Shown: positions 7,156-49,203 of the stretch, one piece after another
Layout of the letters: each line of letters opens with the position of its first letter
Position numbering within the stretch: the stretch's first letter is position 1
Program-made: the position numbers and the translations under genes
Notes under the pieces: model-generated
The model's database searches: none
Seen by the model: only the letters and a program-made list of their open reading frames with translations
Told to the model about the DNA's origin: nothing
NCBI GenBank assembly: GCA_027263115.1
Contig: GCA_027263115.1_3656.1
Source: a phage
Length of the DNA: 64,000 nt
Reading direction: 5' to 3' (one strand)

Positions 7156-7162
7156 AAACGTG

Positions 7163-9033: not shown

Positions 9034-9035
9034 TA

Positions 9036-34540: not shown

Positions 34541-34570
34541 TATTTTAAGTTATCAGGTTGCCAGAGATCA

Positions 34571-34605
34571 GGAGGATTTCTAAAATGGATTTCCTCCTTT
34601 TGATA
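34571..34605 (+). terminator. intrinsic terminator
   Basis: ggagga...tcctcc hairpin followed by TTTT. Confidence 0.5.
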
Positions 34606-34839
34606 TTTTACCTACCAGGATATTTTAAAATCCTTAGAAAATCAGAAAATGGATCGAAAACTAAAATGGATTTTTCAGAGCAGGCACGACGAGATGAACC
34701 ACTCATCCTATCGTCTGCACCATATTCCAGACCACCATTACAGATTTCCCGCACATGCTCACACCCTTCTACTAGAACTTCCCCCACTTACCCTTGACCT
34801 TTTATAGTAATAATCCAACCACTACCTTGAAGTTGTGGC

Positions 34840-35110
34840 GCAGCTTTCCAAGTACTCGATCTGTTTTTCGTTTCAAAGATTGAATTTTCTGAAAATTTTT
34901 CTCGATAAATTTCTCAGTACTCGATCTGTTTTTCGTTTTCTGAATCTGATTTTCTGGAAATCGTTCCGGCTCTCGACCTGAAATTTTTGGGGACGAAATC
35001 GATTTTTCGTTTTCAGAAATGGATTTTTAAAATTTCTATATGGGAATATTTTAGTGGATACTATTTTATAGGAAATTGTTACGGAGGGTAATTAGCGTGC
35101 TAATTAAATT
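34840..35110. repeat. non-coding direct-repeat region
   Basis: 23-bp direct repeat agtactcgatctgtttttcgttt at 34851 and 34916; tttttcgttttc motifs; palindrome taattagcgtgctaatta at 35089-35106. Confidence 0.6.
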
Positions 35111-35175
35111 TATTAAATGCGAGGAGTTCTCATTTAGAATTTTGAATGATAATCATTCTCGTTTGCAGAATAACG

Positions 35176-35198
35176 GGCAGGCCCGGTGATTGTCTCCC
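35176..35198 (+). repeat. copy A of palindromic ggcaggcccggtgattgtctccc element
   Basis: 23 bp identical to the reverse complement of part of 44620-44662. Confidence 0.6.
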
Positions 35199-35314
35199 GG
35201 CCCCTACTGCCCCGGCTTGTTATTATAGTAACACACAGGACAAAGAAAGCAAGAAGTTTTTGCATAAATTTTTAGACGATAATGATAATCGTTCTCATTT
35301 CATGCAGCGCCCAT

Positions 35315-35351
35315 CCCCGGTGGTTGTCTCCCCCGTCACCGGTGCCTGCCG
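35315..35351 (+). repeat. copy B of the same palindromic element (right half)
   Basis: ccccggtggttgtctcccccgtcaccggtgcctgccg, about 90 percent identical to the reverse complement of 44620-44662. Confidence 0.55.
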
Positions 35352-35554
35352 TCCTTTCGATAGGTATATTTTGCCACCTGGCGGGGCCGCTGTCAACACT
35401 TTTCAAAAAAATTTCTAACCTGATGCGCTGACCGCTGCAACCTGGCGGGGCCAGCCTGGCAGGGCCTAACTGACCAGGTAGGAGAGAATGAAGGCTTGCA
35501 AACCTGGTGGGCCTATGCTATAGGATAGGTAACAATTGAAGAGGAGGTACAAAA

Positions 35555-35731
35555 ATGGAAGGTAATATGATCCCCCTGGAAAATGTAGCTATTAATGACG
35601 CTGAGGCTATCGCCCTGGTTGAAAAGGCTATGGCGGGAGCGTTGGAACATAAAGAAGAGTACGAAAAAATGATGGTTAACCTGGCAGGGGCGGCGGCTGG
35701 AGAATTCTACCCAAAAAATAATTTTAACTAA
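35555..35731 (+). CDS. small hypothetical protein (58 aa)
   Basis: ATG 8 nt after GAGGAGG; below the ORF-track length cutoff. Confidence 0.45.
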   Translation: MEGNMIPLENVAINDAEAIALVEKAMAGALEHKEEYEKMMVNLAGAAAGEFYPKNNFN

Positions 35732-35734
35732 TGG

Positions 35735-35763
35735 TTGACAGCTCGGACAGTTCTTGTTATTCT
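35735..35763 (+). promoter_or_regulatory. sigma70-type promoter
   Basis: TTGACA-17nt-TATTCT. Confidence 0.5.
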
Positions 35764-35816
35764 TATCCTCGCAAGGTGAACAACACCACACTAATTAACA
35801 GAGAGGATAAAAAATC

Positions 35817-36014
35817 ATGAACGCCTACGGAATTAAAGTACGTCGCAACACTCGCCAGGTGGTCACCAATCAAGTGATTTGCCGGGTGGATGTAACCATC
35901 AACAACGGGCAAGGCCTTTATAAATTTCGTCGCGGTCATAGCTATACCCTGCAACAGCTTAACCGTTGCGCCCTGACAAAAGGTCAGATCAACCACTGGT
36001 TTAATAAAAAATAA
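35817..36014 (+). CDS. hypothetical protein
   Basis: 65-aa ORF with AGAGAGGA RBS. Confidence 0.55.
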   Translation: MNAYGIKVRRNTRQVVTNQVICRVDVTINNGQGLYKFRRGHSYTLQQLNRCALTKGQINHWFNKK

Positions 36015-36016
36015 TG

Positions 36017-36045
36017 TTGACATATGGTCTGACACAAAATACACT
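36017..36045 (+). promoter_or_regulatory. sigma70-type promoter
   Basis: TTGACA-17nt-TACACT. Confidence 0.55.
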
Positions 36046-36077
36046 GAAATCGCAAAAGACACTAAGAGGATAAAATC

Positions 36078-36476
36078 ATGAAAACCACTACCTTTAATTT
36101 TGATAATGCGGACTTTTCTTTTTCTGATGTCAAGAACTGCCGCCGTGATCGTGGATTTTACAAGGCTTATAATCTGGTGGGCCTGGACGATGACAATAAT
36201 TTGCACGAAGTAGCTGAGATCCGGTATTATGCCGCCGCCAGTGGTAACACTCACTACTGCGTGTTTTGGATTCACGACAACAAGAACAATAAGTACGGTT
36301 ATACTGGCGGCAAGGCGAGCGGTCACGGTTACGATAAAGCTAACGCAGCACTTGAGAGTGCATTAAATGCTATGGGGATCACTGCCGACGGCTGGATCTA
36401 CGAAGAAGAGTTTTTGTCGGCACTTGCTGACCACCTGGGCTATAAAAAGCACATTGTGACATGCGCCCACGAATAA
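36078..36476 (+). CDS. hypothetical protein
   Basis: 132-aa ORF with AAGAGGA RBS. Confidence 0.55.
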   Translation: MKTTTFNFDNADFSFSDVKNCRRDRGFYKAYNLVGLDDDNNLHEVAEIRYYAAASGNTHYCVFWIHDNKNNKYGYTGGKASGHGYDKANAALESALNAMGITADGWIYEEEFLSALADHLGYKKHIVTCAHE

Positions 36477-36483
36477 AAATCAT

Positions 36484-36511
36484 TGACACGCTGCAAAATT
36501 TAAGTAAACTA
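36484..36511 (+). promoter_or_regulatory. sigma70-type promoter
   Basis: TTGACA-16nt-TAAACT. Confidence 0.55.
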
Positions 36512-36558
36512 GACACAAAAGGCGGGGATGTTTCCCGCCAGCACAAAGGAAAAAGATC

Positions 36559-36954
36559 ATGAATAAGAACGTACGCCGCATCATGAACGAACTGGCAAAC
36601 GATGAAAAAATTATTGACATGCATTTATTCAACATTTGCCGCCGTTGTGTAACATATAACAACCGCGCCGCAAAAGCGCGTGAGATGAATGCGAAAGGCA
36701 CCTTAAAGCCCTTTCAGGTGGTTGTAAAATCTATAACCAGTGCAGCAGGCCAGGCGCATGACCACAACAACGAGAGCGCTAATATTGATCCGTCTTACGT
36801 AATGAAACGGATCCGGACTTGCAAGAATAAAGAGCAGGTGTATAACGTCATAGATTGGCTGGACTCCCTGGGTGATGTGGTTTACAATAGGTTTTCTGCA
36901 GCTATCGAGATCCAGCTTGACAGATTGGACGGGAAAGTACTGAAAACTTACTGA
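36559..36954 (+). CDS. hypothetical protein
   Basis: 131-aa ORF with AAAGGAAA RBS. Confidence 0.55.
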   Translation: MNKNVRRIMNELANDEKIIDMHLFNICRRCVTYNNRAAKAREMNAKGTLKPFQVVVKSITSAAGQAHDHNNESANIDPSYVMKRIRTCKNKEQVYNVIDWLDSLGDVVYNRFSAAIEIQLDRLDGKVLKTY

Positions 36955-37002
36955 GTTTATTTTTAGATGGCCTTGACTCCAGGGCCATCAATAAAGTAAA
37001 CT
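36955..37002 (+). promoter_or_regulatory. repeated palindromic promoter-like element, copy 1
   Basis: tttatttttagatggccttgactccagggccatcaataaagtaaac; 7-bp stem gatggcc/ggccatc with TTGACT in the loop and TAAACT about 18 nt downstream. Confidence 0.5.
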
Positions 37003-37033
37003 AACCACAGTTGAGCGGAAAGGGGGCTTAAAG

Positions 37034-37153
37034 ATGAGTACTACACGCCAGCACACAAAGGTAACTATTATCGTTTGCATCATTGGTTACATCCTGGCGC
37101 AAATGTTGATGGGTAGCGCCAACGGTATCGCAAAATTTTTCTTAAACTTTTAA
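37034..37153 (+). CDS. small hydrophobic peptide (39 aa)
   Basis: AAAGGGGG RBS; predicted single TM helix; C-terminal SANGI motif shared with the 43512 peptide. Confidence 0.4.
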   Translation: MSTTRQHTKVTIIVCIIGYILAQMLMGSANGIAKFFLNF

Positions 37154-37181
37154 TTGACAAGCTAACTTAGATCAGTATACT
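37154..37181 (+). promoter_or_regulatory. sigma70-type promoter
   Basis: TTGACA-16nt-TATACT. Confidence 0.65.
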
Positions 37182-37231
37182 AAACACATAAACGGGAAAA
37201 CTTCCCAGAACACACAAAAGGAGAAAACACC

Positions 37232-37573
37232 ATGACTACTATGACCGCCGCAGAAAAAGCTATGCAGATCGCCGCGCTGAAAAAACAGATCGCAGACCTT
37301 GAGAATAAGATCGATAACTTTGAAATCGACGAGGACAAGTACGACGAAAACTATGATGAATGGTTAGACGAGATCTACGGCGAAATTATGATCGGAAACA
37401 TTTCTTTTCTTCCGTCGCGTATCCTCAAGGAGCTAGATCCTATCGCTTACCGCTGCGGATTTAGCGACTACATCGACAGCTTGGATATTGAGGACGATGA
37501 AGAATACCAGGAATTGCATACAGAGCTTGAAGAAGTGAAAGAAGAGCTTGCAGAACTGGAAGAAAACGAGTAA
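37232..37573 (+). CDS. hypothetical acidic coiled-coil protein
   Basis: 113-aa ORF with AAGGAGA RBS. Confidence 0.55.
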   Translation: MTTMTAAEKAMQIAALKKQIADLENKIDNFEIDEDKYDENYDEWLDEIYGEIMIGNISFLPSRILKELDPIAYRCGFSDYIDSLDIEDDEEYQELHTELEEVKEELAELEENE

Positions 37574-37620
37574 ATTTATTTTTAGATGGCCTTGACTCCA
37601 GGGCCATCAATAAAGTAAAC
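37574..37620 (+). promoter_or_regulatory. repeated palindromic promoter-like element, copy 2
   Basis: identical to the 36955 element; immediately follows a stop codon. Confidence 0.5.
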
Positions 37621-37662
37621 TTTATACTGTTAACACTGAACTAATGCATAGGAGTTAAAACC

Positions 37663-37908
37663 ATGGCAGCACTAATCACCAAATATTATGCCCCTACCAA
37701 CACCAAAAGCGCCCGTATCATGGTAAAAGGCTTCGGACGTAAAAAGGTTTACACCTGGGATTATGCCTTAGACACGGAAGACAACTACACCAACGCGATG
37801 ACCGATTTTATTAATGACCTGAACACGCGGATCTTGACAAATTATCAAATTACCGATATTGCCTATATAGGGGAAGGCGGGATCTGTTTTGTCGGTATCG
37901 TCAAATAA
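37663..37908 (+). CDS. hypothetical protein
   Basis: 81-aa ORF with TAGGAG RBS. Confidence 0.55.
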   Translation: MAALITKYYAPTNTKSARIMVKGFGRKKVYTWDYALDTEDNYTNAMTDFINDLNTRILTNYQITDIAYIGEGGICFVGIVK

Positions 37909-37983
37909 GCTGGTTTTTCGGTGGTCCTGGTAGCAGGGCCATCTATAAAGATAGTTTATCAACACAATGAAAGGAGAAAGTAC

Positions 37984-38331
37984 ATGATCAGCGGGGCTAG
38001 TTTTATTATTGGCGCTATTGCTACGGCTTTAATTGTAAACAAGATCCAGGATAAAAAGGAAAGTACCGCCCTTGCAGAATATCCATTTTGGACATTCAAC
38101 GATAATGAAGATTATATTATAAAGTATAAAAATAAAGAAGGTGACCAAGTAACACCGCGACCGATCCCGGCTTACAAAATGCAGGAAACACTGTACCGCC
38201 TGGAAGCGGGGGGCGCAAAAATTGTAGACTTTTGGGGATACGATCACACAGATCAGGAAGTTATAAAGCGCCGTATCCGGGCTATTCAGGCCAATATTGA
38301 AGTTAGCAAGGGGGGAATATATGAAGATTAA
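37984..38331 (+). CDS. hypothetical membrane-anchored protein
   Basis: ATG after AAAGGAGA; N-terminal hydrophobic helix; track start 37921 less likely. Confidence 0.5.
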   Translation: MISGASFIIGAIATALIVNKIQDKKESTALAEYPFWTFNDNEDYIIKYKNKEGDQVTPRPIPAYKMQETLYRLEAGGAKIVDFWGYDHTDQEVIKRRIRAIQANIEVSKGGIYED

Positions 38332-38518
38332 TTTTGAGAAGATTGTAAAGCGATCTCATGATTCCGAAGATCTGCCGGAACGACGCCAGCGTAACAATAA
38401 ACTGAATAAGCCAAAAAGATTTGGGAAGATCTGGCGAAATCATTATGATCGTAAACTGCCGGGCCTGCTTTTGGAACGTGAACGACAGGCGGAACGATAC
38501 CGCCACAAAGACAAATAG
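38321..38518 (+). CDS. small basic protein
   Basis: ATG after AAGGGGGG; Arg/Lys-rich. Confidence 0.45.
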   Translation: MKINFEKIVKRSHDSEDLPERRQRNNKLNKPKRFGKIWRNHYDRKLPGLLLERERQAERYRHKDK

Positions 38519-38526
38519 CAACCAAC

Positions 38527-38551
38527 GCCCCGCCATTGTGCGGGGCTTTTT
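38527..38551 (+). terminator. intrinsic terminator
   Basis: gccccgc-cattgt-gcggggc hairpin followed by TTTTT. Confidence 0.7.
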
Positions 38552-38698
38552 ATTTCTATCCCGCCGATAGCGCCCCTGGTTGGCCCTACAAGCGCCATAA
38601 AGGCCCCTACCTATGCAATCCCCTTTATTAACCTGAAAACATCGCCCAGGGCCGTTTTATGGTGTTAAAATATTATTGATAGTTATTTTATTTAAAGC

Positions 38699-38727
38699 TT
38701 GACACCTTGGAATAGTCCGGATATACT
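38699..38727 (+). promoter_or_regulatory. sigma70-type promoter
   Basis: TTGACA-17nt-TATACT. Confidence 0.65.
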
Positions 38728-38762
38728 AACCACATCAAAGCAAGAAGGAAGGAGTAAACGCC

Positions 38763-39032
38763 ATGCGTAAATTAAAAAATTTTGATAAAGTTGATATTGT
38801 CCTGAATAATTTTTACTACTGCAATAACAAGGCCGTTTGGTGGCGTGATAGTTCCACCGATAAAGTCAAGGCGCGCTTTCTCCAGGGGCACTGGCAAGGC
38901 CGCCCAGTGATTAAAATCATGGGGCAATTGGTAGCGTTTAAAAATTGCCGCCGTGTTGATGACGTTGAAGAGATTTTAAACATTTTGCGCCACAATAATT
39001 TAAAAATAGTGTTGACAAGTAAATCTCAATAA
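38763..39032 (+). CDS. hypothetical protein
   Basis: 89-aa ORF with AAGGAAGGAG RBS. Confidence 0.55.
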   Translation: MRKLKNFDKVDIVLNNFYYCNNKAVWWRDSSTDKVKARFLQGHWQGRPVIKIMGQLVAFKNCRRVDDVEEILNILRHNNLKIVLTSKSQ

Positions 39033-39039
39033 GTATAAT
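39012..39039 (+). promoter_or_regulatory. sigma70-type promoter
   Basis: TTGACA-16nt-TATAAT, overlapping the 3-prime end of the preceding gene. Confidence 0.65.
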
Positions 39040-39096
39040 TAAAAACACAGGCGGGAAAACTTACCGCCACTAACAAAGAAAACAGGAGAAAATATC

Positions 39097-39720
39097 ATGA
39101 CCACCGTTAACATTACCACAGGTTGCAATTTATCTTTCGACGTGCTGACCGACGAACAAAAAGAAAAAGCTATTGAAATGGTCCGCGAAAGAGAAGAACA
39201 CAGCGGAGAGGATTTTTTCGCAGAAAGTGTAATTGAATATTATAAAGAACAAGTTTTTCCAGAGTACGGCCTTGAAGATACCGATGTACATTGGTCCGGC
39301 TTTTGGTGCCAGGGTGACGGCGCGTCAATCAGTGCTGAAAACGTGGATTTAGAAAAATTCTTGCGTAAAGTAAAGGCCCTGACCAAGTTCCGATCAATTC
39401 GTCACTTGTTTGGCACAATGCACGATGGCGAGTTATCAGCCAGTATTGAACGCGACAAGTACAGCCATTACAGCCATGAAAACACTGTAAGCGGATACAT
39501 TGATACCACCTGGCTAGATCTGACCGCCAAACAAGAAAACAAAGTGGAAGACCTGGAAGAGCTGATCACCGAGACGGTACGGGAGCTATCCCGCAAGGTT
39601 TACGTAGACCTGGAGGAGGCCTATCTAGAACAGTTCACTACCGAAAACCTGATCGGCCTTATTGAGGCCAATGATTGGCGGTTTGATGTGGATGAATATG
39701 GAGAGATGAGTTTTTCATAA
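39097..39720 (+). CDS. hypothetical acidic protein
   Basis: 207-aa ORF with CAGGAGA RBS. Confidence 0.55.
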   Translation: MTTVNITTGCNLSFDVLTDEQKEKAIEMVREREEHSGEDFFAESVIEYYKEQVFPEYGLEDTDVHWSGFWCQGDGASISAENVDLEKFLRKVKALTKFRSIRHLFGTMHDGELSASIERDKYSHYSHENTVSGYIDTTWLDLTAKQENKVEDLEELITETVRELSRKVYVDLEEAYLEQFTTENLIGLIEANDWRFDVDEYGEMSFS

Positions 39721-39809
39721 ATAAAGTGTTGCAATAATCTAAAAACCTGCTATATTAAAACTCAAGGGGGCAAGACGTTTGCCCCACACAAAACAAAGAG
39801 GAAAACATT

Positions 39810-40190
39810 ATGAAAAACACTACTAAAGCTATTGACACCGTTATGTTTAACCTGGTTACCTTTCGCGAGGATATGAAAGATCTTCCACGTGAAACAGTGT
39901 GCGATCACATTGAAAACTATCGCAAACTAATCAAAGAGTTGCCTTTAAAACGTGACCAGTATGCGGCTAACGCTATGCTCAACGCCATGATCAAAAAGAT
40001 GATTCAGTGTGATTTAACCCTGGCCTATGATTATGCAGGTGGTCGTTTTGCAGTATACAATCAGCCCGTGCCTGGTATGGGCACCACCGAAGAATTGCAC
40101 GCGCTCAATCTAAAACAAGACGTGTGGGATAGTATGCCCCGCGTGGTGGTGTGGGCAGAAAGCGGAAAGATTTACGGCGATAATTTTTAA
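39810..40190 (+). CDS. hypothetical protein
   Basis: 126-aa ORF with AAGAGGA RBS. Confidence 0.55.
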   Translation: MKNTTKAIDTVMFNLVTFREDMKDLPRETVCDHIENYRKLIKELPLKRDQYAANAMLNAMIKKMIQCDLTLAYDYAGGRFAVYNQPVPGMGTTEELHALNLKQDVWDSMPRVVVWAESGKIYGDNF

Positions 40191-40197
40191 TCAGGTA

Positions 40198-40228
40198 ACA
40201 GGCGGCATATTTGCCGCCTTATTGTTAA
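40198..40228 (+). terminator. intrinsic terminator
   Basis: ggcggcatatttgccgcc hairpin followed by TTATTGTT. Confidence 0.6.
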
Positions 40229-40254
40229 ACAGAACTGCAAAAGAGGTACATAGA

Positions 40255-40626
40255 ATGGAATTTATTATTTTGGCCGTATTAGTTGCCTTGTTTAACGCCT
40301 GGATCGCTGGCAAGATGGGTAGATCCGCCTTTTTATGGTTTATTATATCTATTTTCCTGGGGGTGGTTTCAACTATTGTACTTGTTATCCTTGCAATTGT
40401 TGACAAAGGTGATAATAGAAAGGGTAAAGTATTTTCCGACCTGTATGACGCGCAAACATTTGTCAACGCCTATTATAGTGATCTTCCAGTCTCCCTACGC
40501 TGCAGCCTTGCACAACAGGTTTTCGATGAAGCTAAAACCAGAGATCACGCCCATGAGATTTGTTTAACTGAGGCGGATCGCCTATTTGAGAGGAATAGAA
40601 AATATGTGGGCCAGCCGTTTAAATAA
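40255..40626 (+). CDS. hypothetical membrane protein
   Basis: start at internal Met of track ORF 40222-40626 after AAAGAGG; two predicted TM helices. Confidence 0.5.
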   Translation: MEFIILAVLVALFNAWIAGKMGRSAFLWFIISIFLGVVSTIVLVILAIVDKGDNRKGKVFSDLYDAQTFVNAYYSDLPVSLRCSLAQQVFDEAKTRDHAHEICLTEADRLFERNRKYVGQPFK

Positions 40627-40849
40627 TACCACGTTAATTAATCCCTTTGATGAAGATTTGAAGCCAGCCGCCTGGCGTGATGGATTCAATAACGAACGCT
40701 TTATTTTCAGGCCTGATCTTAAGGAATTTTATAACAATGGATCGAACAACGACAGAGATAATTTTTCTTGTGATGTGCGTGGTGATGGTACTCCTGGGGG
40801 CCATTGTAAACCACGTCACTACTACCAGGATGAAAGGGGGAGACGATGA
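40604..40849 (+). CDS. hypothetical protein
   Basis: ORF; start uncertain between 40586 and 40604. Confidence 0.45.
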   Translation: MWASRLNNTTLINPFDEDLKPAAWRDGFNNERFIFRPDLKEFYNNGSNNDRDNFSCDVRGDGTPGGHCKPRHYYQDERGRR

Positions 40850-40965
40850 CAACCAAGGATAAGCCCCGCACCGATAAGGTGCGCCGGGTTATGGTATGGC
40901 TTGAGATCATCGCCCTTGAAATATTGTTAGGCGTAGGGATGTATTTTATCGCTGTAAGTAACTGA
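40846..40965 (+). CDS. small hydrophobic peptide (39 aa)
   Basis: ATGA overlap with upstream stop; predicted TM helix. Confidence 0.4.
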   Translation: MTTKDKPRTDKVRRVMVWLEIIALEILLGVGMYFIAVSN

Positions 40966-40968
40966 TAA

Positions 40969-41010
40969 CGGCCCCCGATCCCTGGGGGCCTAACTTTTTA
41001 AAATTTTTTT
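40969..41010 (+). terminator. intrinsic terminator
   Basis: ggcccccgatccctgggggcc hairpin followed by a T-rich tract. Confidence 0.65.
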
Positions 41011-41106
41011 TCTCCCTGAGTGTTGCAATCCGATCCAGAATATGGATAATAATAATCAACGGGGAGCTAATCCCCACCAACACAAAAACCAGAAAGGAGA
41101 AACAAA

Positions 41107-41307
41107 ATGAGCAACAATATCCGCGTTATTAACTTCAAAAAAGAAGAAAAAATTGCCGTGCTGATTGACGGTCAAGAAATCTTCAAGGGCTATTATGAAG
41201 ATCATCAAACGGCGATTAGTATCACTCGCGTGATTGGTTACCATAATTTTTACCCCCAAGGCGCTGAGGCGGCGGTTAAACGAATCAAAGAGATTGTAGG
41301 CCTGTAA
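41107..41307 (+). CDS. hypothetical protein
   Basis: 66-aa ORF with AAAGGAGA RBS. Confidence 0.55.
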   Translation: MSNNIRVINFKKEEKIAVLIDGQEIFKGYYEDHQTAISITRVIGYHNFYPQGAEAAVKRIKEIVGL

Positions 41308-41355
41308 AATTTATTTTTAGATGGCCTTGACTTCAGGGCCATCAATAAAGTAAAT
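41308..41355 (+). promoter_or_regulatory. repeated palindromic promoter-like element, copy 3
   Basis: variant of the 36955 element (ttgacttcagggcc); immediately follows a stop codon. Confidence 0.5.
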
Positions 41356-41400
41356 TTAAACCCTGTTAAAAGACCACGCAGTTAACAAGGAGTGATAGAC

Positions 41401-41700
41401 ATGTTTATCCAGGCTAATAATCTTTATTTCTTTGATGGTCAGATCGTAGATGGTGTGGAAGTGGAGATCACCGGGTGCCCTGGCGGTCAGGCTATGACTT
41501 TTCGGAATAATGCCTTTGATGATTCTCATATCGTTATGAGAATGGAAGTTACGAAGCTGGACGACAAGAAAACACTTATTGACTATTCTGTGAAAGATCA
41601 TCCAGACTACCACATGATCTATGGTGATTTGTGCGTTGTTGACCGTGACAAGGTGGGCGGCATTGTGATCGCTATTGTGAACGATGTTTTCTCAAACTAA
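41401..41700 (+). CDS. hypothetical protein
   Basis: ATG after AAGGAGTG; track start 41392. Confidence 0.55.
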   Translation: MFIQANNLYFFDGQIVDGVEVEITGCPGGQAMTFRNNAFDDSHIVMRMEVTKLDDKKTLIDYSVKDHPDYHMIYGDLCVVDRDKVGGIVIAIVNDVFSN

Positions 41701-41717
41701 TTTCAGCAGGTGATTTT

Positions 41718-42068
41718 ATGAAAATAAAACTATATTACCTTAATGAGCTTAACCCCCTTGCCCAGGTCCGCGCCATAGCTAATACCTTGATTTGTGAGAA
41801 ATCTGTATATTGTGTTGAGCTTAACGCCATGCGTGAACGTCTCAAAGGTGGTTACTTTGACATCCATACTGCAATCAACGGCCTGAATATGGAATTTATA
41901 CGCTTACGTAACAGCCGCTGGAATCTGGCAAGAATGGAACAAGATCCGGCCTACCTTCGTAAGCTGGTTATTGAAAATCATCTGATGTTTAATGCCGAGG
42001 GTGATTATTACCATTTTCACCGCAGACGCTGGTACCGTGGCGGCAATACAGGCAAGAATGCAAAATAA
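41718..42068 (+). CDS. hypothetical protein
   Basis: 116-aa ORF. Confidence 0.55.
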   Translation: MKIKLYYLNELNPLAQVRAIANTLICEKSVYCVELNAMRERLKGGYFDIHTAINGLNMEFIRLRNSRWNLARMEQDPAYLRKLVIENHLMFNAEGDYYHFHRRRWYRGGNTGKNAK

Positions 42069-42103
42069 GGCCCCTAGCAGGGCCTGCAGCAATATAATCA
42101 CAT

Positions 42104-42136
42104 AAAGGCCATGCAACCGCATGGCCTTTATTATTT
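42104..42136 (+). terminator. intrinsic terminator
   Basis: aaaggccatgcaaccgcatggccttt hairpin followed by ATTATTTT. Confidence 0.65.
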
Positions 42137-42270
42137 TGGCGTTACAACGGCATACGGGGCGCTTAAAAAATTTTTAAAGAAGTACTTGCATCATTCCCGA
42201 CAATATGGATAATAAGAGTTGTCGAGGGGGAGGCCCCCAATCGTTGACCAGATAGATAGGAGTTAAAATC

Positions 42271-42555
42271 ATGGCTATTGTTACCGCTGGCGATGTAGTA
42301 GAAATGGAAGCAAAATACTTAAAAGCGGGTATGCACATCCTACGGAATGATCAAGAGTTATTATTAACGATGGTTGACTATAATCCCGGCCAGGATTATC
42401 CAAGCATCGACTACTTTTTTGAGTATGTTGATGAAGAGTTGAAAGAGGATGAGGCATATTGCGGTGAGTTCTGCAACTTCTTTTGTCCTGATGAGGTTGT
42501 AAAGGTTATTTATCAACCTGGCGTACCTTTCCCACTGCACGCTATCAATAAATAA
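42271..42555 (+). CDS. hypothetical protein
   Basis: 94-aa ORF with TAGGAG RBS. Confidence 0.55.
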   Translation: MAIVTAGDVVEMEAKYLKAGMHILRNDQELLLTMVDYNPGQDYPSIDYFFEYVDEELKEDEAYCGEFCNFFCPDEVVKVIYQPGVPFPLHAINK

Positions 42556-42609
42556 ACCTGGCGGGGCCGAAAAGGCCCCAATTATGAAAATAAAGAGAGG
42601 TAAATCATC

Positions 42610-42843
42610 ATGATGGAACAAATTAAACGCGCTGAGGCTATTAATGGCAATGTGATCTATTTTGTCAGCAAAAACGAAAAAGGCGTACCATATGCGGCGG
42701 TAATAGTACAACCTGACGGCGATTATTGGTTTACTGTGTACGGCGCTTATTCTTTTGGGCGTCCAGTGCATGATAAAATTTTGAAAGTAGCGAACCCTAC
42801 CGGGAAGAATATCACAGCAGAAAAATTTTTTGAAAATAGTTGA
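42610..42843 (+). CDS. hypothetical protein
   Basis: 77-aa ORF with AGAGAGG RBS. Confidence 0.55.
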   Translation: MMEQIKRAEAINGNVIYFVSKNEKGVPYAAVIVQPDGDYWFTVYGAYSFGRPVHDKILKVANPTGKNITAEKFFENS

Positions 42844-42868
42844 CATGACCATATAAGACTGTAATATA
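42840..42868 (+). promoter_or_regulatory. sigma70-type promoter
   Basis: TTGACA-17nt-AATATA. Confidence 0.5.
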
Positions 42869-42918
42869 TAAATCAAAGGGGGCAACAAGCCCCACCAACC
42901 ACAAAGAGGATAAAAATC

Positions 42919-43098
42919 ATGGCTATTATTGCAAAGACTGAGATCGTAGGCTTAGATTCTATTCTACTCGCATATGAGGAAGCTATAGAAATGTATGTGG
43001 TTTCCTACGGTGAATATATCCGTGAATATAAATCTATTGATCTAGCTTTTGAATGTTATATTCGCCAGGTCAATAAAGCATATGATGATTATCGTTAA
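42919..43098 (+). CDS. small hypothetical protein (59 aa)
   Basis: ATG after AAGAGGA; below ORF-track cutoff. Confidence 0.45.
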   Translation: MAIIAKTEIVGLDSILLAYEEAIEMYVVSYGEYIREYKSIDLAFECYIRQVNKAYDDYR

Positions 43099-43189
43099 AA
43101 TAGTTTGACAACAAACAACCATCTAACAAAGCATAATACATAAGGTGGTAGAATGATCCGCCACCTGGAACAAAGAAGAGGTAAACACC

Positions 43190-43435
43190 ATGAAAAGCAA
43201 TAAAGGTTATAACGGTTACAAAAACAAAACTCATTGGAATGTAAGCCTTTGGATTAATAACGATGAGTCATTGTACCGGTTGGCCCAAGGCTTTATTAAC
43301 GCCAATGCTAATCGTAATGATGCGGCGCGGGATATGATGCTTTTTCTGGAGCTAACCGGACAAGATAAGACCCCGGACGGCTTCAAGTACAGCACTACGG
43401 CGATCCGTGCCGCGATGGTTGGAATGAAACACTAA
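43190..43435 (+). CDS. hypothetical protein
   Basis: 81-aa ORF with AAGAGG RBS. Confidence 0.55.
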   Translation: MKSNKGYNGYKNKTHWNVSLWINNDESLYRLAQGFINANANRNDAARDMMLFLELTGQDKTPDGFKYSTTAIRAAMVGMKH

Positions 43436-43511
43436 AAGCATATAGCCGCCTTACCCTGGGGCCGCTGCTACGGCCCCATGAATAAGGTTACTAACAGAAG
43501 AGAATAAACAC

Positions 43512-43616
43512 CATGAAACAAAAATTAATTGATGCTGTGATCCTGGTTATTGCCTTAGGTATTGGCCTGATTGCAACCATGGCTAATGTGATCTTGTCTT
43601 CCAACGGTATCGGGTG
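43512..43616 (+). CDS. small hydrophobic peptide (34 aa)
   Basis: predicted TM helix; C-terminal SSNGIG similar to the 37034 peptide. Confidence 0.4.
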
Positions 43617-43626
43617 AGGTTGACAA

Positions 43627-43842
43627 ATGATCACTAACAAAACAGGAAAAACAGAATTTTTACGCAACTTACAGATCGGCAAGCCTGAGATCTGGCATTG
43701 CACTAAAACACCACGTGACGAAATGAAAGACTTCACCGCCACGCTGCAACGGGTAAAGATATCCATCACGCAGAAAAAGGCCTTGCTAGTGGTGGAAGGT
43801 GAGATCCCCCAAACCGTTGTTATAGTTGAGCGTACAGCATAG
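43627..43842 (+). CDS. hypothetical protein
   Basis: 71-aa ORF. Confidence 0.5.
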   Translation: MITNKTGKTEFLRNLQIGKPEIWHCTKTPRDEMKDFTATLQRVKISITQKKALLVVEGEIPQTVVIVERTA

Positions 43843-43933
43843 TTTAATTTATAGAGATACCTGAAAATTAACCAATAAAGCATAAACAGGCGGTTACCGC
43901 CGCCTTAAACGTAGCAGAAAGAGGATAGACACA

Positions 43934-44218
43934 ATGAAAAAGATGATCGCAGTGGTTGCCCTAGTTGTTGGACTTAATGCGCCTGTAATGGCTAAAGAGC
44001 TGGCAAAAGAGGTTAATCTAACGGATATTCATGCCGTCAATCAAATCGGGGTTACTTATCGCTTATGCCTTGCCGCTAAAACTTTTAATGACGGCACAAC
44101 AGAGTACTACGGATTCGAGGGTATCCGGTGCGGTGAGCTTGCTCGCGACCTTAAGGAAGATCCAGATCTGGAAGATCTACCCATCACCGTAAACGGTAAA
44201 GCTTACGTAAACCGTTAA
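43934..44218 (+). CDS. hypothetical secreted protein
   Basis: signal-peptide-like N-terminus MKKMIAVVALVVGLNAPVMA; AGAGGA RBS. Confidence 0.55.
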   Translation: MKKMIAVVALVVGLNAPVMAKELAKEVNLTDIHAVNQIGVTYRLCLAAKTFNDGTTEYYGFEGIRCGELARDLKEDPDLEDLPITVNGKAYVNR

Positions 44219-44220
44219 CC

Positions 44221-44355
44221 ATGAGAAAGATAATCATCACCTTGGGGATTGTGGTAGCAATACTGGCGCTCTTTCCCCTTATGGTTAGGTATGTGCTGAT
44301 CAGTGTTGTCCTGATAGTCAGCGATCTATTGGAAACGGTTGGCACCTTGTTTTAA
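44221..44355 (+). CDS. small hydrophobic peptide (44 aa)
   Basis: two hydrophobic segments; begins 2 nt after upstream stop. Confidence 0.4.
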   Translation: MRKIIITLGIVVAILALFPLMVRYVLISVVLIVSDLLETVGTLF

Positions 44356-44368
44356 AGAGCGATAAAAA

Positions 44369-44560
44369 ATGAATATCGAACAAGTTAGAAAGGTATTAGC
44401 GGTACTGCGTTATCATAATCATAGAAAGGTCATAGACGATCCTGATTATGTTGATTCAAGTCTAGAAGAGGATACACTACAAGCCATAAGTAACATGCAA
44501 GAATTGCTAAAGCGCATGACAGAGAAAAACAGACCGGACTACATAGGCGAAAAAATATAA
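44369..44560 (+). CDS. hypothetical protein
   Basis: 63-aa ORF. Confidence 0.5.
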   Translation: MNIEQVRKVLAVLRYHNHRKVIDDPDYVDSSLEEDTLQAISNMQELLKRMTEKNRPDYIGEKI

Positions 44561-44578
44561 TATTTATAAACTACAAAA

Positions 44579-44606
44579 CAGGGCTTGCAATGGCCCTGTT
44601 TTTGTT
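44579..44606 (+). terminator. intrinsic terminator
   Basis: cagggc-ttgcaatg-gccctg hairpin followed by TTTTTG. Confidence 0.7.
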
Positions 44607-44619
44607 ATACTTATTCTAC

Positions 44620-44662
44620 GGCAGGCACCTGGCGACGGGGGGAGACAATCACCGGGCCTGCC
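44620..44662 (-). repeat. copy C (inverted, complete) of the palindromic ggcaggc...gcctgcc element
   Basis: reverse complement begins ggcaggcccggtgattgtctccc (identical to 35176-35198) and continues like 35315-35351. Confidence 0.6.
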
Positions 44663-44687
44663 TGTCATACAAGAACTATAAAAACCG

Positions 44688-44716
44688 TTGACATCTGCCA
44701 TGGGGTGGGGTAACAT
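44688..44716 (+). promoter_or_regulatory. sigma70-type promoter
   Basis: TTGACA-17nt-TAACAT. Confidence 0.6.
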
Positions 44717-44770
44717 TTATCTTGAAGGGGCAAAAGTGCCCACACAACAACCAGGAGAGAGGAAAACATT

Positions 44771-45043
44771 ATGTCAAGCTGGATTAATCAAGAAGTCGAA
44801 TCACGTTTTAATGCTATATGGGATCTCATCGAAAAAGAGGACGGAACATCAAGCCCCTACCTCAACAATTTGGAATTCCATTTTGTGGAAGCGATGAACG
44901 CAGAACATGATCACGAAGGTGGCGCGGATGAGTTCGCTAAAGGTTATGGCTTTAACAATGCCAACGAAATGATCGAGGCGGTTGTACTCCAGGCTGAGGA
45001 AGATTATCAATTAAAAACGCTTGAATTCTGCCGCCGTAAGTAA
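44771..45043 (+). CDS. hypothetical acidic protein
   Basis: 90-aa ORF with AGGAGAGAGG RBS. Confidence 0.55.
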   Translation: MSSWINQEVESRFNAIWDLIEKEDGTSSPYLNNLEFHFVEAMNAEHDHEGGADEFAKGYGFNNANEMIEAVVLQAEEDYQLKTLEFCRRK

Positions 45044-45103
45044 TAAGATAATGACACGGGCCAAAAGGCCCACTAATCAGAACCACACAAAGGGAGAAAG
45101 AAA

Positions 45104-45322
45104 ATGACAACCCGTAAAATTAAAGTTGTTTGCATTGAATCGACTGGGGGCGCTTTTGTAGTTGGTCAGGAATATAATGCGGTTTTAATGGGTACGGATT
45201 GGAAGGTTAAAGGCCTTAATGGTTACGAGTACGGCACTACTTGCGGCTTGCGTGGTCGAATCGGATACGTGAGTTTAGACAATAAAGAAAAATTTGTTTT
45301 CGACACCCTTGTGAGTAAATAG
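45104..45322 (+). CDS. hypothetical protein
   Basis: 72-aa ORF with AAGGGAGA RBS. Confidence 0.55.
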   Translation: MTTRKIKVVCIESTGGAFVVGQEYNAVLMGTDWKVKGLNGYEYGTTCGLRGRIGYVSLDNKEKFVFDTLVSK

Positions 45323-45400
45323 CATGAATTGCTAAAGACTGATCTGCGAACTGCTGTATTATCAACTAATCAAAACGAACCACATAAAGAGGTAAACATC

Positions 45401-45664
45401 ATGAAACGTCTTGATCAGCTCAAACTAGTTCAGTACATGGCCTACAGAATTCTTGAAGTCCAAAAAGGTAGCAAAAAAGAGGTTTGCGAGAAAGCTTATA
45501 AGATCTTTACCCGCAAAAAAGATGACTGGATGCTACGCCAGACCAAAAAGGCTGACATCTTGGGGTACCTGGAAGAAGAGATCCGCCTTGAAGAGCAAGA
45601 AGAGATCCGCCGCAGTGAAGCAGATTATCAGGCAGCTTGGGAAAACTGGATGAATAACAAATAA
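45401..45664 (+). CDS. hypothetical protein
   Basis: ATG after AAAGAGG; track start 45329 less likely. Confidence 0.5.
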   Translation: MKRLDQLKLVQYMAYRILEVQKGSKKEVCEKAYKIFTRKKDDWMLRQTKKADILGYLEEEIRLEEQEEIRRSEADYQAAWENWMNNK

Positions 45665-45728
45665 TACAACAAGTTACGGTCAGGGGGCAATAAAGCCCCT
45701 TGATCACATAAAAATTATGCTATCCTTA

Positions 45729-45757
45729 TTGACAAGGATCGGCAGTTTTGCTATATT
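45729..45757 (+). promoter_or_regulatory. sigma70-type promoter
   Basis: TTGACA-17nt-TATATT. Confidence 0.65.
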
Positions 45758-45806
45758 CTTTTTTAAAGGGAAGTTGTAAGAAAATTAACTAAGAGGTAAA
45801 AACACC

Positions 45807-46226
45807 ATGAACATTAAATCTAATAATCCGGCATATAGCTTTGATAACGCTTTTTGTCACGGTCCGGCGGCGAAAGGATTCGAAATCGATGGTAAACTAA
45901 TTATTGTCAATGTTGACGGGGAAGAGGTTGCAGTATATCCGGTGGCAGACGTAAAAAGCCGTTTACAATGCCGCATTGATGTTACCGCCTATCAGCTTGA
46001 TCCGGTCCGCATAGTTGCCCTGGTCCTGGAAGAAGAAATTAAAGCCATGCACCATAGCAACAGGTTTATTGGTGACGCTCAGGATAATATGAAGGTGTGC
46101 CGCCATAAAGTTAATGAAGTGCTTAAAGAGTACGGCTATAAAGATCTTATGATCAAACGTGATGAAAAATTCCGGTACCGTAACGACCTGGCAAATCGAA
46201 TCTATGAAATATACGAATCATTATAA
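45807..46226 (+). CDS. hypothetical protein
   Basis: 139-aa ORF with AAGAGG RBS; last gene of the rightward block. Confidence 0.55.
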   Translation: MNIKSNNPAYSFDNAFCHGPAAKGFEIDGKLIIVNVDGEEVAVYPVADVKSRLQCRIDVTAYQLDPVRIVALVLEEEIKAMHHSNRFIGDAQDNMKVCRHKVNEVLKEYGYKDLMIKRDEKFRYRNDLANRIYEIYESL

Positions 46227-46244
46227 TTTTTTAACTGAATTATC

Positions 46245-46269
46245 AAGGGGCTTAGGCCCCTTTCTTTTT
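46245..46269 (+). terminator. intrinsic terminator
   Basis: aaggggc-ttag-gcccctt hairpin followed by TCTTTTTG. Confidence 0.7.
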
Positions 46270-46880
46270 GTCTGATCTTCCCCCTACCATAAACGGCCCT
46301 ACCTGGCAAGTGGAATAATTGACGAGCCATCAACCCCACACACTGTACAAATATACATGTAAAATAACTATTGCATAACTTTTCATTGTGTGGTAGCAGG
46401 GCTATTTTTACCCGTTTTTCCTTCCAAAATTGCACGTAATGCAGCTATTGCACAAAATTTAACCTGATGCATATCTTCAGTGTCTTGTCAACAACTAAAA
46501 ATCTTTATAAGTCATGCACTTACATAACCACAAAAGCGTGCTCTACGTGAAAAATCGAGTATAACTATAGCCGCCAGATCTCAGAATTTACGTACGCTCA
46601 CCATTCTATAGTCTGCTAAGTATTTATTCCAACCATAGAATAACGGAATAGTCAATACCTGCATAAAATAATTATTCGTGTAAACTGCATAACATAAATC
46701 AGCTTAGGTGTCAACATTTTTCGTAAACAGTCTGAAATTATCACGATGAGTTATCATAAACAGAGAAATCTTTAGTCGTCTAATGTTTACTGTACGTTAC
46801 TATACTAACTGAAATCATTAGATGACTAATAGAAAGATAAGAAATAATTAACAATACAATTATTTTATCTGTAACAATAA

Positions 46881-47166
46881 GGCAACTATGCAAACGAATG
46901 GCATGGCGCGACGGAGTCGCGACATAATATAAAAGCAGTAACCATCACCCCCGTGATAGTTTGTCTGCAATCTATTAATCAGATCATAGTTGCCTTGTAT
47001 TTAGTTAATCATGACATAACAAGCAAGGCAACTATAGATCTGCTAATAGTTGCCCTGCTTTTATATTATGTCATAGGAACGCCCGAAGGGGTGACCTAGT
47101 CACCTGGCATAGCCAGCGAAAGATTATTAACTTGGTAATAGTTATCATGCAAACGAATGGCATGGC
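46881..47166. repeat. nested inverted-repeat structure flanked by 20-bp direct repeats
   Basis: direct repeat atgcaaacgaatggcatggc at 46888 and 47147; 18-bp inverted repeat gacataatataaaagcag (46921) vs ctgcttttatattatgtc (47055); 12-bp inverted repeat atagttgccttg (46986) vs caaggcaactat (47024). Confidence 0.6.
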
Positions 47167-47177
47167 TTATCATCTCT

Positions 47178-49082: not shown

Positions 49083-49203
49083 AAAATCTCCTCTGGGAAT
49101 GAAAGTGTGAACAGGGTTTTATACGTTCTAATGCACAGGAATTATACACGTTTGCCTCTTCAGGCCATGCTTTAGCATGAGGAACCTGTGTGGGCTCGGT
49201 GCT

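Follow-up and report, generated by a model that had tools for sequence, protein, structure and literature searches.

A hypervariable, probably early block of small genes with promoter and stem-loop cassettes in an rV5-like coliphage

A dense array of small genes lies in a stretch of phage DNA of 64,000 nucleotides (nt) (NCBI GenBank assembly GCA_027263115.1, contig GCA_027263115.1_3656.1), hereafter the window. The array occupies positions 35500-46230, hereafter the block, for which a sequence-only reading, made without database searches, had claimed about 30 tiny genes. This number is borne out: 31 genes (g01 to g31) are found on the + strand from 35555 to 46226, with a median product length of 81 amino acids (aa), 22 products below 100 aa, six below 60 aa and a coding fraction of 78% (Table 1). 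A Shine-Dalgarno (SD) sequence is present for 28 of them; g23 and g26 are among those without a good one. The block is 96% identical to Escherichia phage FFH2 across 97% of its length and matches 289 deposited phage records, nearly all of them Vequintavirus (rV5-like coliphages); at least 80% of the block is covered in 62 records. Judging from these matches, the window is a Vequintavirus, i.e. an rV5-like phage of E. coli. Nucleotide homology and synteny with genes about 151-195 of rV5 and FFH2 gave a gene-by-gene correspondence, by which the block corresponds to rV5 genes about 164-195A and is the same locus as the rV5 field of small open reading frames (ORFs). That field has already been described in the rV5 genome paper (Kropinski et al. 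2013, PMC3606486), and 26-31 'hypothetical proteins' are annotated at the block in relatives.

Conservation of the genes was assessed in a panel of eight relatives, and the ratio of non-synonymous to synonymous polymorphism (pN/pS) was computed per gene. For most block genes pN/pS lies between 0.03 and 0.29. g01 is frameshifted or partly deleted in five of the eight relatives, has a pN/pS of 2.4 and is weakly supported as a gene. In g14, pN/pS is 0.31 over 40604-40735 and 1.10 over 40736-40822; constraint looks confined to the N-terminal half.

Promoters were searched as matches to TTGACA-N16-18-TATAAT, scored out of 12, with the -10 hexamer ending 25-65 nt before the ATG. Fifteen of the 31 genes have a sigma-70 match of at least 9/12, compared with 1.7+-1.2 in first-order Markov random sequence (maximum 5 in 300 trials). 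Matches of at least 10/12 number 11 on the + strand, where 2.3+-1.5 are expected, and zero on the - strand of the block. With the 8/12 look-alike sites of the same layout before g19 and g29, 17 promoters result. Nine sites match the promoters P164, P168, P174, P185, P186, P192, P194, P195 and P195A in Table S4 of the rV5 paper, a list restricted to matches of at least 10/12 (PMC3606486). Among the relatives 4% of -35 and 7% of -10 columns vary, as against 23% in spacers and 22% in other intergenic DNA (Fisher p about 1e-7). The hexamers are thus far less variable than the surrounding DNA, which is direct evidence that they are under purifying selection for promoter function. The claim that nearly every gene has its own promoter therefore holds for enrichment and placement; only about half of the genes have one (15 plus 2 weaker), and the rest lie in operons of 2-6 genes. 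We predict about 19 transcription units, 13 of them monocistronic and six with 2-6 abutting or overlapping ORFs. This organisation also extends past the limits first drawn for the array: the + strand at 8-34.5 kb and the - strand at 50-64 kb have similar promoter densities, and promoters alone therefore fail to set the block apart. The proposed rV5 late-promoter motif TGGTAAAATA has no exact copy, and its matches with one mismatch occur at chance frequency.

What is specific to the block, unlike the promoters, is a hairpin in the predicted leader. At nine of the 17 promoters the first paired base of a stable GC hairpin (-8.8 to -14.1 kcal/mol) lies 9-12 nt past the -10 hexamer, that is, at about +2 to +5 of the predicted transcript. 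Such hairpins (class A) have an A-rich tract on the 5' side and a CA-rich leader with the SD on the 3' side, and no T-run. The background rate is 12.6% among all 30-mers of the block (p=8e-5) and 25% among its intergenic 30-mers (p=0.012); outside the block 7 of 44 strong promoter matches in the window have such a hairpin after them. Ten class A cassettes align in register in MAFFT. A pairwise-identity metric for the cassettes was dropped, as random 95-mers scored equally, and the MAFFT alignment and positional tests were used instead. Since the A-rich tract 5' of each class A hairpin reads as hairpin plus T-run on the - strand, where five terminator-like calls fall (36539, 37207, 39785, 42893, 43905), the hairpins might terminate antisense transcription and guard the block from convergent or spurious transcripts. 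We hold this to be very improbable. The T-tracts are interrupted in that orientation, the block has neither - strand genes nor - strand promoter matches of at least 10/12, and the fixed distance from the + strand -10 would be left unexplained.

Canonical intrinsic terminators, i.e. a hairpin followed by a T-run (class C), number six, and four of them match rV5 terminators t164, t177, t181 and t184 (Table S4, PMC3606486). The sequence-only reading had seen many; six stand, while most GC hairpins belong to 5' leaders downstream of promoters and have no T-run. Because this run is missing on the + strand, class A hairpins should be poor intrinsic terminators. This speaks against the GC stem-loops being mainly transcription attenuators or insulators between neighbouring units, rather than stabilisers of the mRNA 5' end, as do their position downstream of their own promoter's -10, inside their own transcript, and the six canonical terminators which the block already possesses. 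Attenuation is the role assigned to the stem-loops of the promoter-early stem-loop (PeSL) cassettes, and in reporter constructs those stem-loops terminated transcription (PMC2839356). It would also suit the promoterless hairpins within operons before g20, g23 and g25, the one after g30, and a palindromic hairpin located right at the upstream gene's stop codon (D1, see below). On balance we regard attenuation as an unlikely main role, albeit one with arguments of its own.

The near-palindrome D1 (class B) is 51 nt long and is found in three copies which are 94-100% identical, 0 being expected by chance. Each copy starts at the stop codon of the upstream gene and carries the -35 hexamer TTGACT in the loop of GATGGCCTTG/CAGGGCCATC. 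Among the relatives 8% of its columns vary, compared with 22% for other intergenic DNA. A degenerate copy precedes g08, which has no promoter of its own. The near-identity of the copies, their low variability and the dyad GATGGCC-N10-GGCCATC centred on the -35 would all fit an operator, so that the palindromes, above all D1, might be bound by a phage or host regulator that times some promoters. This appears rather improbable to us, as Pfam, NCBIfam and PHROG scans recognised no DNA-binding protein in the block, a structural RNA or DNA hairpin or gene conversion between the copies predicts equal conservation, and the degenerate copy has kept the hairpin and lost the promoter.

Four of the genes (g05, g15, g23 and g26) encode the small hydrophobic peptides to which the sequence-only reading had drawn attention. 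All four ORFs exist; the third had been placed at 43512-43616, off by one from its real coordinates 43513-43617. Each product has one strong hydrophobic segment behind a positively charged N-terminus, in agreement with the earlier view of them as membrane peptides, and is very probably membrane-inserted. g05 is intact in all eight relatives (pN/pS 0.23) and found at full length in 113 phage records, g15 likewise in all eight (pN/pS 0.16) and in 119 records. g23 is intact in the six of six relatives with a full match (pN/pS 0.12) and occurs in at least 19 records, a score-limited number. The pN/pS of these three lies inside the range of their neighbours. g26 has no SD, starts 2 nt past the stop codon of g25 and is coupled to it. 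It is found in 164 phage records, at full length with 64-82% identity in Phapecoctavirus and Klebsiella phages; its pN/pS is 0.48, its ATG is lost in one relative, and it is deleted in Murica and JLBYU08. Within the genus the evidence for g26 is weaker than for the other three.

That these ORFs are chance open frames in regulatory DNA and no genes at all is scarcely credible to us. They are very short, g23 and g26 have no good SD, several annotations skip them or call an antisense ORF in their place, and the pN/pS and lost ATG of g26 point in the same direction. Against this stand their intactness in essentially all relatives, the pN/pS of 0.12-0.23 in g05, g15 and g23, the own promoter and strong SD of g05, and the full-length occurrence of g26 in two phage subfamilies. 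Moreover, the g23 orthologue of phage FV3 is only 53% identical, yet has kept the length, the hydrophobic core with its transmembrane (TM) segment and the C-terminal SS(N/H)GIG (SSHGIG in FV3). Given intact frames in relatives, pN/pS of 0.12-0.48, occurrence in 19-164 phage records and PHROG membership, we judge the four to be genuine, conserved and already catalogued micro-genes.

They do not form a family with a shared S(A/S)NGI motif, as had been proposed. The four fall into four different PHROGs and have no pairwise similarity: BLASTP yields no alignment of g05 with g23, and in an all-against-all Smith-Waterman comparison of 21 pairs z was at most 2.8 (0.9 for g05-g23). The motif, a 4-of-5 match, is attained by 14% of shuffled pairs, i.e. 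at chance level, and is not conserved in g05 orthologues, which read SANGV, SANSV, SANDF or SANSF. The peptides thus seem to be independently evolved single-pass membrane micro-proteins, g26 possibly two-pass. We give about even odds to their being inserted in the inner membrane and acting as modulators of exclusion or of functions of the host envelope. Matches to Pfam or NCBIfam models, including curated small-toxin and holin models, were found neither for the four nor for an alternative-frame peptide over the second half of g14 and g15. g26 has a sub-threshold DUF7396 match only, and the UniRef label 'DUF3096' on one of its orthologues is unsupported. The alternative frame (40737-40862), a candidate fifth hydrophobic peptide, is open in nine of nine genomes; it has the SD AGGAA, and its substitutions are conservative and hydrophobic. 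By frame, pN/pS in this region is 0.66 for the candidate, 1.10 for g14 and 0.53 for the third frame, which favours no frame.

Even close relatives differ in the hypervariable gene content of the block. At least ten genes vary in their presence across the panel: g01, g18, g21, g22, g23, g26, g27, g29, g31 and an extra gene after g27. g29 is missing from all eight relatives and present in 41 of 161 records, rV5 among them; its cassette is flanked by direct repeats of about 25 nt, made up of leader and SD (ACTAATCAGAACCACACAAAGGGAG and ACTAATCAAAACGAACCACATAAAGAGG). g22 is missing from I29, bov11CS3, Wec193 and FV3, and the indel is flanked by repeats of about 25 nt of leader, SD and ATG (AACAAAGAAGAGGTAAACACCATGAAA and AACAGAAGAGAATAAACACCATGAAA). 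The gene g22 is 82-86% identical in nucleotide sequence to DNA of jumbo coliphages (about 350-390 kb; PBECO4, G17, BF17 and others) which are otherwise unrelated. In FV3 a replacement of g21-g23' starts exactly behind the -35 TTGACA, and the incoming cassette is of the same design; the FV3 deletion of g31 has its junction between two stem-loops of the form TCA(A)GGGGC. Phapecoctavirus ESCO5, a phage of a different subfamily, carries DNA with 93-96% identity to the FV3 module. In ESCO5 a GC hairpin follows 11-12 nt after the promoter at eight of nine gene-proximal promoters, with a stereotyped CACRTAGGGCGG start. The ESCO5 cassettes (3272-9074) are even more stereotyped, of the form ATAAAAAG-TTGACA-N16-TAAGAT-GTATCACATAGGGCGG...CCGCC; CAYRTAGRGMG, which is absent from this window, has nine copies within 11.5 kb of one ESCO5 strand.

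Taken together, we consider it probable that the block is a hyperplastic, probably early, accessory-gene block of Vequintavirus built from promoter-hairpin gene cassettes. This reading builds on the cassette anatomy, the selection on promoters and most ORFs, the modular presence and absence of genes and the module shared across subfamilies, all of which are observed. A cassette runs from an AT-rich tract through a host-type sigma-70 promoter, a short stem-loop rich in GC and a CA-rich leader to a strong SD and a small ORF; some hold an operon of 2-6 abutting ORFs, and six true terminators punctuate the block. The stem-loop mostly starts 9-12 nt past the -10, and in the three 51-nt palindromes it wraps the -35 instead. 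Host sigma-70 RNA polymerase would transcribe the cassettes right upon DNA entry. Stabilisation of mRNA by a 5' stem-loop is established in E. coli, and the 5' hairpin may shield the short mRNA from 5'-end-dependent decay or insulate adjacent units. Strong SDs would then give high expression of dispensable accessory proteins, inner-membrane micro-proteins among them, which may act on the host in takeover, anti-defence or exclusion. The similar regulatory segments could provide short homology for modular gene gain, loss and exchange, as proposed for PeSLs.

Several points weigh against this reading. Eight promoters have no stable hairpin, and three hairpins have no recognisable promoter. In four of about ten events, those at g29 and g22, the FV3 replacement at its left end and the deletion of g31 in FV3, junctions fall in cassette elements; in so small a sample the excess over the intergenic fraction (about 22%) is not significant, and the junction preference is statistically insecure. 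Selection for viable recombinants alone would favour intergenic junctions too. Four events (the deletions of g18, g26 and g22-g24 and the partial deletion of g01) have little or no flanking homology. No Pfam assignment was obtained for 29 of the 31 products, and g11 has no structural relative either; host takeover is therefore a putative role for every gene. Early timing, where +1 lies with respect to the hairpin, and what the hairpin does are all inferences. A literature search found no transcriptomic, ribosome-profiling or toxicity data reported for Vequintavirus early genes. The attribution to an early, host-takeover type of region, already made in the sequence-only reading, fits in this indirect manner with the conserved host sigma-70 sites, the T7 gp1.1 family membership of g09 and the hypervariable gene content.

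More tentatively, the cassettes and D1 may represent a mobile regulatory system analogous to PeSLs, in rV5-like and phi92-like (Phapecoctavirus) phages, by which single micro-genes would be swapped inside a phage subfamily, from one subfamily to another, and also with jumbo phages. Its units would give autonomous early expression along with short homologies, and small membrane peptides would be among the cargo. The locus is otherwise largely ordinary: the rV5 genome paper already covered its small-gene field and its strongest promoters, and its proteins are catalogued as families of unknown function. The four micro-proteins, under purifying selection and often skipped or mis-called in annotation, are reasonable candidates for screening therapeutic rV5-like phages for toxicity or exclusion. 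The cassette architecture offers a practical rule for annotation and engineering (fixed-distance 5' hairpin, conserved palindromic promoter, shared leader/SD segments at indel junctions), and its elements may mark natural 'landing pads' and dispensable units.

Regarding the individual products, curated profile thresholds were reached only by g09 (Pfam PF08200 Phage_1_1, 45.7 bits with the gathering threshold at 21, E=8.9e-12) and by g22 (DUF7249). All 30 products scanned against PHROGs, a scan that did not include g31, fall in families labelled 'unknown function'. PDB sequence searches and PADLOC were empty for the block products; for g06 they gave nothing above noise. The labels 'YeeU-like antitoxin', 'acetyltransferase', 'phosphonoacetaldehyde hydrolase' and 'Rel homology domain' carried by relatives have no support from any profile search. 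Seven products are of membrane or exported type (g05, g08, g13, g15, g23, g25 and g26). Four small proteins are strikingly acidic, with net charges of -26 (g06, g11) and -12 (g19, g28). DNA-mimic anti-restriction proteins typically have such a composition; for g06, g11, g19 and g28 no match to a profile or fold speaks for or against this reading. Homologues of g11 with 58-60% identity lie on contigs of 356-360 kb. Close to its 3' end g10 differs from all eight relatives by a 1-nt indel, so that its product has 89 aa, against 86-87 aa in the relatives, and another C-terminus.

The block belongs to a larger field. Upstream, at 7.2-34.5 kb, replication-type and small genes lie on the + strand, and a convergent cluster of small genes occupies the - strand at 49.8-64 kb. 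Between this cluster and the block lies an ORF-poor convergence zone (46230-49700), rich in short direct repeats (GTAAACAGT..., and TGTCAC... at 47177-47640), the counterpart of the 'non-coding' region 104013-106618 of rV5 (PMC3606486). Directly upstream of the block, about 0.9 kb (34560-35500) is ORF-poor as well, with GC-rich structured segments and three 47-nt direct repeats (34842-35027); all ORFs annotated there in relatives are short and dubious. A GC-rich element of about 45 nt with the core CCGGTGATTGTCTCCC has three copies in the window, where 0.04 are expected. Two are direct and lie in this non-coding stretch (35183-35198 and 35317-35332, both +), and the third is inverted and lies between the bidirectional terminator and the g28 promoter (44640-44655, -), so that g01-g27 lie between the copies. 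Folding of the - strand over 44603-44690 gives z=-2.8. In the complete window neither Rfam nor tRNA scans gave a match. About 20 records named Campylobacter phage (host C. jejuni; e.g. MG065674, MG065659) carry the block at 93-95% identity; some of them are unannotated partial contigs, and they look like mislabelled or contaminating rV5-like genomes.

Table 1. Predicted genes and regulatory elements of the block, with positions in the window (hairpins and promoters are named after the gene or genes they precede).
Feature	Position	Strand	Description
g01	35555-35731	+	58 aa, acidic; SD GAGGAGG; phrog_21957
g02	35817-36014	+	65 aa, basic (+11); intact 8/8 relatives; pN/pS 0.29; phrog_7119
g03	36078-36476	+	132 aa; intact 8/8; pN/pS 0.06; phrog_7028; no Pfam match
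g04	36559-36954	+	131 aa; pN/pS 0.10; phrog_13245
g05 (peptide 1)	37034-37153	+	39 aa, single-TM, segment residues 10-28; SD AAGGGGG; own D1 promoter; phrog_16391
g06	37232-37573	+	113 aa, net charge -26; pN/pS 0.12; phrog_9294
g07	37663-37908	+	81 aa; pN/pS 0.12; phrog_3199
g08	37984-38331	+	115 aa, N-terminal membrane anchor; TM-like segment residues 1-19; phrog_12734
g09	38321-38518	+	65 aa, T7 gp1.1 family; pN/pS 0.03; 11-nt overlap with g08
g10	38763-39032	+	89 aa, basic; phrog_11241
g11	39097-39720	+	207 aa, net charge -26; largest block product
g12	39810-40190	+	126 aa; pN/pS 0.04; phrog_7352
g13	40255-40626	+	123 aa; TM-like segments residues 1-19, 30-48; pN/pS 0.10; phrog_13090
g14	40604-40849	+	81 aa; annotated frame truncated in 6/8 relatives
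Candidate fifth peptide	40737-40862	+	41 aa (MDRTTTEIIFLVMCVVMVLLGAIVNHVTTTRMKGGDDDNQG); unannotated, alternative frame over g14 second half and g15
g15 (peptide 2)	40846-40965	+	39 aa, single-TM; SD AAGGGGGAG; phrog_13629
g16	41107-41307	+	66 aa; pN/pS 0.06; phrog_12347
g17	41401-41700	+	99 aa; pN/pS 0.16; phrog_7366
g18	41718-42068	+	116 aa, dispensable; missing in FV3, bov11CS3; pN/pS 0.69
g19	42271-42555	+	94 aa, acidic (-12); pN/pS 0.08; phrog_12610
g20	42610-42843	+	77 aa; pN/pS 0.09; phrog_9227
g21	42919-43098	+	59 aa; pN/pS 0.03; replaced in FV3
g22	43190-43435	+	81 aa, DUF7249, Pfam PF23907, E=7e-13; mobile cassette
g23 (peptide 3)	43513-43617	+	34 aa, single-TM; phrog_14631
g24	43627-43842	+	71 aa; pN/pS 0.10; phrog_5988
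g25	43934-44218	+	94 aa, signal-peptide-like N-terminus MKKMIAVVALVVGLNAPVMA; pN/pS 0.14
g26 (peptide 4)	44221-44355	+	44 aa, very hydrophobic; equals rV5 gp165 (rv5_gp165); PHROG 16005
g27	44369-44560	+	63 aa; pN/pS 0.06; missing in FV3
g28	44771-45043	+	90 aa, acidic (-12); pN/pS 0.04; phrog_7287
g29	45104-45322	+	72 aa; polymorphic inserted cassette
g30	45401-45664	+	87 aa; pN/pS 0.05; phrog_11701
g31	45807-46226	+	139 aa; pN/pS 0.11; missing in FV3; no Pfam match
Promoter g02	35735-35763	+	TTGACA-17-TATTCT with TG, 10/12; rV5 P195A
Promoter g03	36017-36045	+	TTGACA-17-TACACT, 10/12; rV5 P195
Promoter g04	36483-36510	+	TTGACA-16-TAAACT, 10/12; rV5 P194
Promoter g05	36973-37002	+	TTGACT-18-TAAACT, 9/12; within D1
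Promoter g06	37154-37181	+	TTGACA-16-TATACT, 11/12; rV5 P192
Promoter g07-g09	37592-37621	+	TTGACT-18-TAAACT, 9/12; within D1
Promoter g10	38699-38727	+	TTGACA-17-TATACT, 11/12; rV5 P186
Promoter g11	39012-39039	+	TTGACA-16-TATAAT, 12/12; rV5 P185; -35 within g10 3' end
Promoter g12	39729-39756	+	TTGCAA-16-TATATT with TG, 9/12
Promoter g16	41023-41050	+	TTGCAA-16-GATAAT, 9/12
Promoter g17-g18	41327-41356	+	TTGACT-18-TAAATT, 9/12; within D1
Weaker promoter g19-g20	42186-42213	+	TTGCAT-16-GATAAT, 8/12; layout as g16 promoter
Promoter g21	42840-42867	+	TTGACA-16-TAATAT, 10/12; rV5 P174; left junction of FV3 replacement
Possible promoter g22-g27	43105-43134	+	TTGACA-18-AAGCAT, 9/12; weak -10
Promoter g28	44688-44716	+	TTGACA-17-TAACAT, 10/12; rV5 P168
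Weaker promoter g29-g30	45021-45049	+	TTGAAT-17-TAAGAT, 8/12
Promoter g31	45729-45757	+	TTGACA-17-TATATT with TG, 11/12; rV5 P164
Class A hairpin g04	36521-36539	+	GGCGGGGATGTTTCCCGCC, -14.1 kcal/mol; first pair 11 nt after -10; no T-run
Class A hairpin g06	37193-37207	+	weak, -5.5 kcal/mol
Class A hairpin g11	39050-39068	+	-10.0 kcal/mol; stem longer in relatives
Class A hairpin g12	39766-39785	+	-12.5 kcal/mol
Class A hairpin g16	41061-41075	+	-9.3 kcal/mol
Class A hairpin g19	42226-42238	+	-10.0 kcal/mol
Class A hairpin g21	42878-42893	+	-10.5 kcal/mol
Class A hairpin g22	43143-43166	+	-12.0 kcal/mol
Class A hairpin g28	44727-44741	+	-8.8 kcal/mol
Class A hairpin g29	45058-45071	+	-10.7 kcal/mol; serves g30 in relatives without g29
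GC hairpin before g20	42563-42579	+	no recognisable promoter
GC hairpin before g23	43448-43467	+	no recognisable promoter
GC hairpin before g25	43888-43905	+	no recognisable promoter
GC hairpin after g30	45683-45699	+	left junction of FV3 g31 deletion
D1 copy 1	36953-37003	+	from g04 stop codon; 6/51 columns vary
D1 copy 2	37572-37622	+	from g06 stop codon; 4/51 columns vary
D1 copy 3	41307-41357	+	from g16 stop codon; 2/51 columns vary
Degenerate D1	37907-37957	+	67% identity; hairpin retained, promoter hexamers gone
Terminator after g09	38527-38546	+	7 GC pairs then TTTTTATTT
Terminator after g12	40200-40219	+	rV5 t184
Terminator after g15	40970-40990	+	rV5 t181
Terminator after g18	42102-42131	+	rV5 t177
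Bidirectional terminator after g27	44575-44602	.	354-nt gene inserted here in 5 relatives
Terminator after g31	46245-46262	+	rV5 t164; block end

With a range of 34-44 aa, one hydrophobic helix and a positive N-terminus, the four peptides resemble Hok/Gef, TisB, Ldr, Ibs, T4 Imm/Sp and lambda Kil. In contrast to these known small toxins and membrane micro-proteins they match no Pfam or NCBIfam model, and the likeness is compositional only. T7 gene 1.1 belongs to the early region of that phage, where host RNA polymerase starts at three clustered, strong sigma-70 promoters and RNase III processes one long transcript. The block is alike in its small genes, its predicted host sigma-70 transcription and the Phage_1_1 family membership of g09, whereas its promoters are many and dispersed and its hairpins too small for RNase III sites. 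Substrates of RNase III need stems longer than 5-8 base pairs (bp), and processing sites of this type were rejected for the block, where stems have only 5-8 bp. The morons of lambdoid phages are genes that each lie between a promoter and a terminator of their own; they are inserted singly into late operons of temperate phages, without conserved repeats at their flanks. With the block genes they have in common that each is a single accessory gene, dispensable and variable in its presence, with signals for its autonomous expression; block units differ in being tandem and co-oriented, in a virulent phage, with similar regulatory segments and only six terminators for 31 genes.

The closest counterpart is the small-ORF field of rV5 (PMC3606486), which is the same locus, shares nine promoters and four terminators and has g26 as gp165. 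Its authors likewise view the homologous block as of early or host-takeover type. Gene content differs, and the leader hairpins, D1 and the cassette-linked indels are not described in the rV5 paper.

In kind, the cassettes compare best with the PeSLs of T4-type phages, which consist of an AT-rich tract, a sigma-70 consensus promoter, a polyG/polyC stem-loop, an SD and the ATG (Arbiol et al. 2010, PMC2839356; Comeau et al. 2014, PMC4122927). The PeSL stem-loop varies in position, lying over the -35 or just past the -10, and PeSLs cluster in hyperplastic ORFan regions, where crossovers between them delete, insert or replace ORFans (PMC2839356, PMC4122927). A literature search found no PeSL-type cassettes reported outside T4-type phages. 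The lineage differs (Vequintavirinae/Stephanstirmvirinae, not T4-like), and the likeness we claim is architectural only, with no claim of sequence homology to the T4-type elements. Moreover, the block hairpin lies mostly after the -10, inside the transcript, and promoter and terminator activity in the block is predicted from sequence, whereas PeSL activity was shown by reporters, with inverse PCR on infected cells for mini-circle formation (PMC2839356). Alike are the composite of AT-rich tract, sigma-70 promoter, G/C stem-loop (GGGG...CCCC), SD and ATG, and the location in a hypervariable ORFan region (block hairpins at 9/17 promoters versus 7/44 elsewhere in the window). Some ORFan indels and replacements in the block, four of about ten events, cross between the -10 and the ATG, at the promoter or in the stem-loop, as PeSL crossovers do, but the statistical support for such a junction preference is weak. 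On account of these features of architecture and location we place the block cassettes, by analogy, with the PeSL-like kind; the array, the main promoters and the small ORFs were already known. If the analogy is true, the proposed mechanism of modular gene exchange would reach beyond T4-type phages, and PeSL-type shuffling would be a convergent, general trait of large virulent coliphages rather than a T4-like peculiarity.

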